Source: a virus
IMG/VR virus record: IMGVR_UViG_3300045988_115461
DNA: 61,912 bases
Reading direction: 5' to 3' (one strand)
A program made the translations under genes and the position numbers. The notes beneath the pieces are model-generated. The model did not search any database and was not told the DNA's origin. It worked only from the letters and a program-made list of their open reading frames with translations. This document shows positions 1,519-3,881 of the stretch, piece after piece; positions within the stretch are counted from its first letter, which is position 1; each line of letters opens with the position of its first letter.

Positions 1519-1716
1519 TCACATTGTCGTTTTTGACTCATTACTGATTCTAGGCAACGGGTTGTTAGTTACTTCTTCTAGTACTTTTTCATCTTCATCT
1601 TTGAGATATTTGTTTCTCATCTCTCGAATATCATTTGTCATCCCCCATATTTTGAAGAATAAGACAATTTGTAATACTCCGAATACAAGAAGCACGATGG
1701 TTAAAAAATCAATCAT
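1519..1716 (-). CDS. Small membrane protein (65 aa), last gene of the repressor operon
   Basis: N-terminal hydrophobic helix FLTIVLLVFGVLQIVLFFKIWG and a charged tail. It starts 4 nt after the upstream gene's stop. Confidence 0.55.
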   Translation of the reverse strand: MIDFLTIVLLVFGVLQIVLFFKIWGMTNDIREMRNKYLKDEDEKVLEEVTNNPLPRISNESKTTM

Positions 1717-1720
1717 AATT

Positions 1721-3169
1721 TTAGATATTTAGCTTGTTCTTTAATTCGTTGAATTTATCGGGGTTTTCTAATTCTACCCAATAGTATTTTACATATATAT
1801 CCCGATCAAAACTTTCTTTCTTTTCATAAACAATTAAACATTGCTTATCACATAGAACGATAACCGAGGACTCAAGTATATTGGCATAAGACCGAGCCTG
1901 CTTAAAAGCTTCCTCTATATCTTGGTTGTTCTTCATATGGAATTTAGCTTCAATCAGAACCTTTGCTCGTTCGTAATCTGGTTTTTTATCATAATGTAAG
2001 GCGTAATCCGGGAATACCCTATGTCCCCGTCCTGCATGGATTGGTAATTGCCGGATGAAATCCTTATTCTCATACCACCCCATTTTGTTCAAGTAATACT
2101 CTAATAGCTGAACTTCAACATCTCTTTCGCAGGATATAGAGAGGTTATTGAGTAAGGCTGGAGCATAGAGCTTCGGCAGGGTATCTATGTCAAATCCTTT
2201 TGCTTTTATCATTCGTAGGAGTTCTGAATAATCCTCACTGCTCATCGGCCACCCATTCACCCCTTGAAACTTCTTTCTAATAAGTGGATGCTTGTAAAAA
2301 TATTCATCGGCTTGAAGCTCTTTTAGTGTGATATGCGGGATGTCTATCTTATCACTTATATAGGTGTTACTGTAATAGTGAAATAATGGGTCAATTACTC
2401 CATCGGTTTGTGCTATCCATAAACAGGTGATTGCGCTTTTAGGTGATTTTTCATAATAGATGAGAATATCACCTTTCTTTGTTTCGGGATTGGCTTGCCA
2501 AAAGATGAAATCTAAATCTATCTCTGTTTTCTGTGTATATCCACCGATAAACCATGCTTGCGCCGGTTTAGGAATATCTACTTTCTCCTTTGGAATGTAA
2601 TTTGGTGCAAAGTCATATAAAAAAGCGCATAATTCGACAGGAGATAAATTGTTTGCTTTTCTGAACTGATAGAAAATATCGCAAAGCTGCCAATAATACA
2701 TACACCTTCCTTTATGGTCAGTTCTTGATGGAACCAGCGGCAGGTTTATACCGAATGCGTCTGCAATCTTTTTTAAGTCAAAGAATCGGCACACAAATAA
2801 ATACGGAAAGAAATACTCTGGTGCAAATCTCGATAGAATATACGATACAGGTTGGATAAATCCTAACATATCCCTGAAATCGTTACGAGGAATCCATACT
2901 TTTCCGTTTATCATTATCCCCAAGACAACCAACGCCTCATAGAAGTCTTTGGATTCATCTAAAGATGTAGGAATTTCGCAGTCTGATACGCCATAACAAG
3001 ATATGTTTTCCAACCAGTCGTTATATAATCCTTCTGGCGTGAATTTTACATAATACGGAGTATATTTCCGTAAAAGAGTATAGCCGTCTATTTCCTCAAA
3101 CTCCTTGATCGCCTTCTGCCCATCAGGAGATTGTTTATATAGATTCCATGTGTATTGATTGAATTTCAT
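1721..3169 (-). CDS. 482-aa protein: unknown N-domain + EVE/PUA-like middle domain + C-terminal PD-(D/E)xK (HsdR-N-like) nuclease fold
   Basis: The middle region (KKGDILIYYEKSPKSAITCLWIAQ...ITLKELQAD...PMSSEDYSELLRMI) resembles EVE/ASCH-type PUA folds. The C-terminus (VFPDYALHY...AKVLIEAKFH...QARSYA) fits the PD..ExK restriction-endonuclease core. Confidence 0.55.
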   Translation of the reverse strand: MKFNQYTWNLYKQSPDGQKAIKEFEEIDGYTLLRKYTPYYVKFTPEGLYNDWLENISCYGVSDCEIPTSLDESKDFYEALVVLGIMINGKVWIPRNDFRDMLGFIQPVSYILSRFAPEYFFPYLFVCRFFDLKKIADAFGINLPLVPSRTDHKGRCMYYWQLCDIFYQFRKANNLSPVELCAFLYDFAPNYIPKEKVDIPKPAQAWFIGGYTQKTEIDLDFIFWQANPETKKGDILIYYEKSPKSAITCLWIAQTDGVIDPLFHYYSNTYISDKIDIPHITLKELQADEYFYKHPLIRKKFQGVNGWPMSSEDYSELLRMIKAKGFDIDTLPKLYAPALLNNLSISCERDVEVQLLEYYLNKMGWYENKDFIRQLPIHAGRGHRVFPDYALHYDKKPDYERAKVLIEAKFHMKNNQDIEEAFKQARSYANILESSVIVLCDKQCLIVYEKKESFDRDIYVKYYWVELENPDKFNELKNKLNI

Positions 3170-3170
3170 G

Positions 3171-3881
3171 CTACCTCCTTCTTGGTCGGCTCATTTCAAT
3201 TACGTTGAAAATTTGCCTTACATCTTTTAGTTCCAATACTCTATCTGGATAGAAAGAGTTTAGCGAATGAATCGTGATAGTATAATTTTCTACATCATGG
3301 TCTATGATGCGTTTTATAAGAATGCCTTCCTTATGGACTATGACAAAATCCCACTTCCGGATATGTAATTTGGATTCCGCCCAATATTGCTGGTAGATTT
3401 CTCTACAAAGTAAACGATCTCCTTCTTTATAGGCTTCATCTGTTCCGTCATCCATACTATCTCCTTTTACCTCAAAAGCCATATATTTCCCATGAGCTTC
3501 TTGATCGACAATAAAAGGTATAGTTGGAAGTGATTCTATATATTCTGCATCTGCATAGCCACATAAATAACCGGCGTATGCATATTGATTTACTAATGGC
3601 ACGTATATAATATGATCTGGGGCTAAAGGCAATGCTTCGACCGTTTTATTAATGTTAGTTTCTTGTGAATATATTTCTCCTGTACCGGTATAGAGCCATT
3701 CTAAGTTATATTTCGGAAATCTATTGATGATTTTTTGACATGTAGCCCTTGAAGGGTTTCTCTTTTCATTAATAAGGCGAGTTATAGTCACATTGTTATT
3801 GATTCCTATCGCTTCGCTAAATGAGTTTTTATTAAACCCTTCTTTATCCATGACATACTGAACTCTTTCCCAGCCTTCCAT
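3171..3881 (-). CDS. CI/LexA-like phage repressor (XRE HTH + S24 autopeptidase)
   Basis: Start chosen at MEGWERVQYVMDKEGF. The HTH is NSFSEAIGINNNVTITRLINEKRNP. The S24 motifs are FEVKGDSMDD (Ser) and ILIKRII (Lys). Confidence 0.85.
   Translation of the reverse strand: MEGWERVQYVMDKEGFNKNSFSEAIGINNNVTITRLINEKRNPSRATCQKIINRFPKYNLEWLYTGTGEIYSQETNINKTVEALPLAPDHIIYVPLVNQYAYAGYLCGYADAEYIESLPTIPFIVDQEAHGKYMAFEVKGDSMDDGTDEAYKEGDRLLCREIYQQYWAESKLHIRKWDFVIVHKEGILIKRIIDHDVENYTITIHSLNSFYPDRVLELKDVRQIFNVIEMSRPRRR

Follow-up and report, generated by a model that had tools for sequence, protein, structure and literature searches.

A gene for a 482-amino-acid (aa) protein lies directly behind the CI-like repressor gene of the Bacteroides phage recorded in IMG/VR as IMGVR_UViG_3300045988_115461, and its product is probably a single-chain, type IV-like modification-sensing defence nuclease that would be co-expressed with the repressor and would protect the lysogen, a reading that combines sequence comparison, a structural model and analogy with characterized enzymes. 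The DNA analyzed, referred to here as the window, is the whole 61,912-nucleotide (nt) stretch of this record, given as one strand from 5' to 3'. Three minus-strand open reading frames (ORFs), encoding the repressor, the 482-aa protein and a 65-aa membrane protein, were confirmed in it (Table 1). Their tight packing, which had been described in a first-pass annotation made from the letters alone, is evident from the junction sequences: one nucleotide separates the repressor stop codon TAG (3171-3173) from the ATG of the 482-aa gene (...AGGAGGTAG-C-ATG), and four nucleotides separate the stop codon TAA of this gene (1721-1723) from the ATG of the 65-aa gene (...TAA-AATT-ATG). Both genes downstream of the repressor are real and not chance ORFs, because both have large sets of homologs: the 482-aa protein has 603 in a 90%-clustered database, and clustering at 50% identity gives 557 representatives (of which 214 reach E<=1e-30), with the full-length architecture kept, and the 65-aa protein has 173 homolog clusters.

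Fusions of an EVE domain to a PD-(D/E)xK nuclease have been predicted as a class before, and it is no surprise to find defence cargo in a prophage immunity region. What is new here is a very abundant prophage family of gut Bacteroidales that is uncatalogued and mis-annotated, together with its obligate N-terminal domain (N-domain) of 195 aa, its almost invariable coupling to prophage repressors, and its relatives in which the nuclease is swapped for a TIR domain.

Domain architecture of the 482-aa protein

The 482-aa protein very likely consists of three parts, namely a helical N-domain, an EVE/PUA-like barrel and a PD-(D/E)xK nuclease. A first AlphaFold2 run, based on 26 close homologs, modelled the middle domain poorly (predicted local distance difference test, pLDDT, <50 over residues 195-278), and a second run used a 133-sequence alignment reaching down to 27% identity. 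The resulting model has three domains, a mean pLDDT of 96.3 and a predicted template modelling score (pTM) of 0.89. The first-pass annotation had guessed that a PUA-like segment was joined to a PD-(D/E)xK core and had proposed a structure search as a check. The peptide segments that it quoted (GDILIYYEKSPKSAITCLW, ITLKELQAD, SSEDYSELLRMI, FPDY and VLIEAKF) are all present in the protein, and the guess has held up: Foldseek searches with the predicted structure found both a PUA-like barrel and a nuclease fold, in agreement with Pfam matches in relatives and with motif conservation.

Six residues of the nuclease domain (E348, D388, E407, K409, Q424 and Y428) show 99-100% conservation over the 133 homologs, down to 27% identity. 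D388...E407-x-K409 together with Q424-xxx-Y428 makes up the complete D...(D/E)xK plus QxxxY motif of HsdR/RecB-type nucleases (codons of D388, E407 and K409 at 2006-2008, 1949-1951 and 1943-1945, respectively). The AlphaFold2 model contains the alpha-beta-beta-beta-alpha-beta nuclease core at pLDDT >90, built from helices at residues 348-362 and 415-432 and strands at 389-396, 399-408, 436-440 and 444-449. Because this core fold is present and the motif residues are almost invariant, the enzyme looks catalytically competent. Foldseek matched the region to the nuclease domains of Cas4 (4r5q), DrdV (7lo5) and BpuSI (3s1s), and a PDB profile search of the family matched the HsdR structure 3h1t over the same region. 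In addition, at E<=0.1 the Pfam profile HSDR_N (PF04313) picked up 45 of 93 family members (best 8.9e-6), HSDR_N_2 (PF13588) was matched by 21 of the 93, and the NCBIfam model of the EcoAI R N-terminus gave a weak match (E 3e-3) to residues 348-461 of the 482-aa protein.

For the middle domain, the best Foldseek match in the PDB was the EVE structure 2gbs (E 2.8e-4, template modelling score 0.66 of target), followed by 1zce, 2ar1, 2hd9 and 2g2x among the top matches; the EVE matches all had a probability of 1.0, and ASCH and YTH domains were ranked after them. A structure search of BFVD likewise returned an EVE protein as its first match. At the sequence level, Pfam EVE was matched by seven of the 93 family members (best E 1.2e-4), and the family profile aligned to 2gbs over the expected region (positions 243-331), weakly (E 0.54). 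Residues conserved in this part of the alignment are W224, G233, D234, Y239, P243, W251, P261, G306 and Y314, of which W224, Y239, P243, W251 and Y314 are candidates for an aromatic or hydrophobic pocket.

The N-domain, which the first-pass annotation had left unassigned, has kept that status: none of the 93 members has a Pfam family match in this part, and two Foldseek searches (one with the full model, the other with the earlier one, whose well-folded part was chiefly the N-domain) returned no credible PDB analogue. This domain always accompanies the present EVE subfamily, and it is kept in variants that have a TIR domain or that have no nuclease.

Genomic context and architectural variants

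The position of the gene right behind a repressor, which had been proposed from the window alone, recurs widely. Relatives are encoded on 282 viral contigs of IMG/VR. Of the best 80, which were examined, 79 had enough upstream sequence, and in 75 of these 79 a repressor homolog ends 1-38 nt before the gene of the 482-aa type. Loci in Bacteroidales genomes agree with this: the gene follows an S24 or helix-turn-helix (HTH) repressor and in most cases marks the extreme end of a prophage, in Bacteroides, Phocaeicola, Parabacteroides, Mediterranea and Millionella, and the same post-repressor position was found in one Porphyromonadaceae metagenome-assembled genome (MAG) and in gut metagenome contigs, often with a convergent integrase gene next. 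The repressors ahead of the relatives diverge, some being undetectable by phmmer with the window repressor, and those in Prevotella and in one unassigned metagenome contig are short HTH-only proteins. Since the upstream repressors are so divergent, the gene is linked to the slot behind a repressor and not to a single repressor lineage.

Homologs at ~40% identity stand as solitary genes among housekeeping genes in the chromosomes of Chitinophagaceae and other Bacteroidota, which implies that a protein of the 482-aa type works without phage partners. In the loci inspected, no methyltransferase gene was found in the cassette or beside the solitary homologs, and no hsdM or hsdS gene was found near any of the relatives.

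A related temperate phage, BS-TP2 (PQ571275, locus L131), whose portal protein is 64% identical to that of the window, encodes a 401-aa protein at 7966-9171, directly after its S24 repressor. This protein is unrelated to the 482-aa protein and has no Pfam match. The replacement fits the idea that the slot after the repressor is a cargo position, apparently even a hotspot for such genes. A tblastn search with the 482-aa protein against 50,697 GenBank phage records gave no match, and a megablast search of window positions 1-8000 against GenBank phage records returned only a 47-nt integrase fragment of BS-TP2. Given the unrelated gene in the slot and the lack of a tblastn match, the 482-aa gene is dispensable for phages of the BS-TP2 type.

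Several architectural variants were observed. Homologs of 634-639 aa in Prevotella and Hallella (L038-L040, L043) carry an N-terminal extension of ~150 aa; no recognisable repressor lies ahead of them. Nuclease-less forms of 331-332 aa, which consist of the N-domain and the EVE domain, are encoded ~230 nt downstream of tyrS in four rumen Bacteroidales MAGs (L045-L048, ~5810-6810). Two further relatives (P0200 and P0241) share the N-domain and the EVE domain at 35-38% identity and carry an N-terminal TIR domain in place of the nuclease and a short beta-rich domain of ~90 aa at the C-terminus. In locus L050 (437-3916), the gene of a TIR-fused relative lies between two more TIR genes, one of them ThsB-like. 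Such a swap of effectors on a constant putative sensor is a signature of prokaryotic immune proteins.

The family is little visible in current resources. The 482-aa protein is covered from end to end by PHROG 37753 (E 3e-209), a family annotated as 'unknown function', and searches of the window proteins against Pfam, NCBIfam and PADLOC gave no match to a defence system, with nuclease matches below threshold only. Several NCBI and UniRef records name homologs 'type I restriction endonuclease subunit R' or 'HsdR N-terminal domain-containing protein'.

Proposed mode of action

In the favoured reading, the EVE/PUA-like reader, packed on the family-specific helical N-domain, would recognise a non-canonical (modified) base. 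The model for this recognition is VcaM4I, an EVE-HNH enzyme: the base would be expected to flip into an aromatic pocket. Recognition would then license the C-terminal HsdR_N-type PD-(D/E)xK domain to cut DNA. The protein would be made in the lysogen together with the repressor and would protect both the lysogen and its prophage against incoming phages or mobile DNA that carry the modification. Expression in the lysogen is expected because the gene lies 1 nt behind the gene of the CI-like repressor with no terminator between them. Transcription of the Bacteroides prophage BV01 is reported to be highest at its repressor gene (PMC8354205), and by analogy we infer that genes riding behind a repressor may be expressed in Bacteroides lysogens.

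Known systems offer several points of comparison. A computational catalogue (PMC7641849; Bell, Wolf & Koonin 2020) lists EVE-PD(D/E)XK fusions as putative type IV enzymes. Like them, the 482-aa protein combines EVE and PD-(D/E)xK in one chain, has a divergent EVE domain that is seen only by sensitive methods, and lacks a cognate methyltransferase in its operon; whereas that class is a computational catalogue, the present protein adds an obligate helical domain of ~195 aa and a prophage immunity operon. In VcaM4I, the EVE domain flips 5-methylcytosine (5mC) or 5-hydroxymethylcytosine (5hmC) into a hydrophobic pocket, phage T4gt is restricted, and the reader and a linker hold the nuclease in check (PMC7897488). 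VcaM4I and TspA15I (PMC7897488, PMC6765204) resemble the 482-aa protein in using EVE as the sensor of a single-chain enzyme, whereas their nuclease is of the HNH type and lies C-terminal to an N-terminal EVE domain, and they have neither the extra N-domain nor the linkage to a prophage repressor. More broadly, the modular combination of a reader with a nuclease recurs among defence enzymes (PMC12191111). No sequence similarity between the 482-aa protein and VcaM4I/TspA15I was detected beyond the fold. Type I HsdR (PF04313) belongs to the same nuclease subfamily and has the same D...ExK and QxxxY elements, whereas the 482-aa protein has no helicase motor and no HsdM or HsdS to work with. In the type IV enzymes of the MspJI family, an SRA-like reader and a PD-(D/E)xK-like nuclease are joined in one protein that is ATP-independent. 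The 482-aa protein shares with them a PUA-superfamily reader and a PD-(D/E)xK-type domain, the reader of MspJI being SRA-like and not EVE; structures of the MspJI family were not among the top 50 Foldseek hits of the 482-aa model. As in type IV enzymes, reader and nuclease are combined and the cassette has no cognate methyltransferase.

Several observations weigh against a modification-sensing nuclease. The 482-aa protein of the window itself has no Pfam EVE match, its HSDR_N score of 15 bits is below the gathering cutoff of 25.1, and the window proteins have no PADLOC match. The N-domain, ~40% of the protein, is without an assignable role after the Pfam and Foldseek searches. Moreover, the nuclease-less forms near tyrS hint at a use of the sensor outside defence, possibly related to RNA, and the TIR-fused relatives suggest that sensing of a molecule does not have to lead to its cleavage. 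Finally, the phage itself encodes DNA-modifying enzymes: the two DNA methyltransferases that the first-pass annotation had listed are indeed encoded in the early region, 12-15 kb from the cassette (Table 1). The products of the C5-methyltransferase and of the N6/N4-methyltransferase could be substrates of the nuclease, and self-compatibility would then call for an explanation.

A broader reading, possible if somewhat unlikely, is that the N-domain and the EVE domain together form an unrecognised portable infection sensor coupled to repressors, with a nuclease as effector here, a TIR domain elsewhere and none in some genomes. Its ligand would be a modified nucleotide or nucleic acid from competing phages, possibly also from relatives with the same kind of methyltransferases as this phage, and the sensor would, beyond classical type IV restriction, mediate prophage-versus-phage competition in the gut as one of the commonest prophage cargo genes in human-gut Bacteroides.

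An abortive-infection sensor, the main rival reading though judged unlikely, would use the N-domain and the EVE domain to bind an infection-derived small ligand (for instance a modified nucleotide set free by phage attack) or RNA, after which the nuclease would degrade DNA indiscriminately and the cell would die or arrest. The sensor module of P0200 and P0241 is wired to TIR, a typical abortive-infection effector, with one copy inside a TIR gene cluster, and the high pTM (0.89) points to a rigid assembly that may be autoinhibited; a PUA-family sensor (PUA-Cal-HAD) of free m6-dAMP is reported to trigger defence (PMC12871103). However, the characterized EVE-nuclease fusions act directly on modified DNA (PMC7897488), and ligand sensing and DNA reading are not distinguished by the present results.

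It is very doubtful that the 482-aa protein is an enzyme of the phage life cycle, which would process host or phage DNA during lysogeny establishment, induction or recombination. The tight and almost invariable linkage to the repressor in Bacteroidales prophages would suit such a role, and the DNA-modifying enzymes of the phage might cooperate with the protein, but the distant homologs stand outside prophages as solitary chromosomal genes, BS-TP2 holds an unrelated gene in the slot, the GenBank phage records yielded no tblastn match, and the TIR-swapped variants are hard to square with a housekeeping role. That the protein is a type I restriction R subunit or a fragment of one, as the database names and the weak match to EcoAI R might suggest, is scarcely credible, since the match is limited to the nuclease module of ~130 aa, no SF2 helicase/translocase domain is present in Pfam searches or in the AlphaFold2 model, and hsdM and hsdS are absent from the inspected loci, which refutes a full HsdR and makes the names an over-annotation. 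A single-chain modification-sensing nuclease is the favoured reading.

The 65-aa membrane protein

The cassette resembles lambda cI-rexA-rexB in that the genes lie directly downstream of a CI repressor in the same orientation, with a small membrane protein at the end of the operon. The position in the rexAB manner, directly downstream, co-oriented and free of a terminator, is found both in the window (1-nt gap) and in the synteny of the viral contigs (75/79). Unlike lambda rexAB, with which there is no homology, the system would have a reader-nuclease as effector instead of the Rex sensor and ion channel, and its membrane protein is facultative. The first-pass annotation had taken the 65-aa protein for a functional partner of the nuclease, an expectation that the comparison of loci does not support: the 65-aa gene lies downstream of the nuclease gene in 30 of 64 viral loci and directly next to it in only six, which is not the obligate pairing of a sensor with a membrane protein as in RexA/RexB; it was not found beside the solitary chromosomal nuclease homologs; and it also occurs alone. 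Elsewhere, variable genes, many of them for lipoproteins, lie between the two. A RexB-like partner was rejected on these co-occurrence counts and stand-alone occurrences.

The homologs of the 65-aa protein come from Bacteroides and are nearly all of the same length, some of them being present on hundreds of contigs. One locus (L017) has a copy with 71% identity, and in other prophages (L001-L006) the N-terminus of the protein is fused to longer tails. The 65-aa protein is an independent, conserved Bacteroides prophage-end gene product, a facultative neighbour that stands outside the proposed mechanism.

In genomes of the B. eggerthii type (L132-L137, 5001-5198), the 65-aa gene stands alone, with no nuclease or repressor gene nearby. 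It occupies the same chromosomal site (dcuC and a response regulator) as the end of a full prophage in L017-L019, and looks like a prophage remnant. A HigB/HTH toxin-antitoxin pair was also seen near this lone gene.

Immunity region and other features of the element

The repressor matches Pfam Peptidase_S24 (E 2.5e-7) and HTH_3 (E 1.6e-3) as well as PHROG 4 ('transcriptional repressor', E 1.8e-18). Three operator-like palindromes (3902-3916, 3932-3946 and 3965-3979), spaced 30-33 bp apart, lie upstream of its ATG, and the repeat search found one inverted repeat of 16 nt with 100% complementarity in this region. Because the palindromes sit upstream of the ATG at 3881, this codon was taken as the start instead of that of a longer ORF beginning with TTG. 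The promoter pattern TTTGN{17,23}TANNTTTG has eight matches in the window, compared with 2.3 expected, and the spacer of the match that points to the divergent early genes (3955-3985) holds the best operator copy (3965-3979). Judged by its sequence elements, this arrangement of repressor, operator and divergent early promoter is that of a classical immunity switch. The terminator scan found a single minus-strand terminator-like site between 4200 and 1300, the hairpin at 1436-1459, which overlaps the 3' end of the convergent integrase gene and is the candidate terminator that closes the repressor operon. The convergent integrase arrangement recurs in loci L001-L006, L021, L022, L026, L033 and L036. 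An AGGAGG had been noted 5 nt upstream of the 482-aa start; the motif is present, at a distance of 4 nt and not 5, and it is not conserved: among 38 distinct sequences upstream of homologous genes, a match resembling a Shine-Dalgarno site was found only in the window and L007. It also falls within the last repressor codons (RRR*), and for these two reasons it was given no weight and was rejected as a functional Shine-Dalgarno site.

Table 1. Positions of the cassette and of other features in the window
Feature	Position	Strand	Basis or remarks
Tyrosine integrase	121..1449	+	Pfam Phage_int_SAM_5, E 3e-11; convergent with cassette
Bidirectional terminator-like hairpin, AAGCCGGG...CCCGGCTT	1436..1459	.	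Terminator scan; minus-strand T-run after hairpin
65-aa single-pass membrane protein	1519..1716	-	Transmembrane helix ~4-24, charged tail; 173 homolog clusters
482-aa protein	1721..3169	-	
HsdR_N-type PD-(D/E)xK nuclease, residues ~345-482 plus stop	1721..2137	-	Pfam, NCBIfam, Foldseek, conservation
EVE/PUA-like beta-barrel, residues ~200-325	2195..2572	-	Foldseek, Pfam in relatives, profile alignment; predicted modified-base reader
Helical N-domain, residues 1-194	2588..3169	-	AlphaFold2 pLDDT >90
CI-like repressor, 236 aa	3171..3881	-	N-terminal HTH_3; C-terminal LexA-type S24 autopeptidase (GDSM serine motif)
Operator-like region, palindrome TACTAAC(A/T)GTTAGTA x3	3902..3979	.	Repeat search; between divergent repressor and early genes
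Bacteroides-type promoter match, TTTG-N19-TAtaTTTG	3955..3985	+	Pattern search; points rightward to divergent early genes
C5-methyltransferase	15150..16301		Early region
SNF2-type helicase/N6_N4-methyltransferase fusion, 835 aa	16348..18855		Early region; adjoins C5-methyltransferase
tRNA-Val (GAC) gene	24731..24804		Inside phage genome
Pentapeptide-repeat protein, 390 aa	57077..58249	-	Far end of late genes
SRAP (YedK-like) protein	58745..59452	-	
UmuC-like Y-family polymerase	59454..60761	-	
UmuD-like S24 protein	60710..61180	-	

The first 51 nt of the window (1-51) are identical to its last 51 nt (61862-61912), so that it is either a 61,861-bp element, circularly closed or terminally redundant, or one bounded by 51-bp att repeats; all genes in the window belong to the element. 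The SRAP and umuDC genes (58.7-61.2 kb) were considered as a host flank, and this was rejected because the window ends are identical over 51 nt; a 44-mer taken from the same region had no exact match in the genome collection. This SOS/DNA-damage cargo (58745-61180) is an unusual passenger in a phage that also has an S24-cleavable repressor of its own. A perfect match to a Bacteroides-type promoter (58420-58450) lies ~170 nt upstream of the pentapeptide-repeat gene, and this gene may be another cargo gene expressed in the lysogen.

Implications

Bacteroides and related genera dominate the human gut, yet experiments cover very few of their defences against phages. The present family is abundant there, single clusters being seen on hundreds of contigs, and it is almost always tied to a prophage repressor; it escapes defence catalogues because PADLOC has no match for it, PHROGs lists it as 'unknown' and its database name is wrongly that of a type I R subunit. 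Should the 482-aa protein be an active nuclease that senses modification, it would account for some of the superinfection immunity that gut prophages confer, the unit of N-domain and EVE domain would be a new modified-base reader, and phages with modified DNA would be predicted to be common enough in the gut to select for the gene. Its coexistence with two phage methyltransferases poses a directly testable question of self versus non-self.

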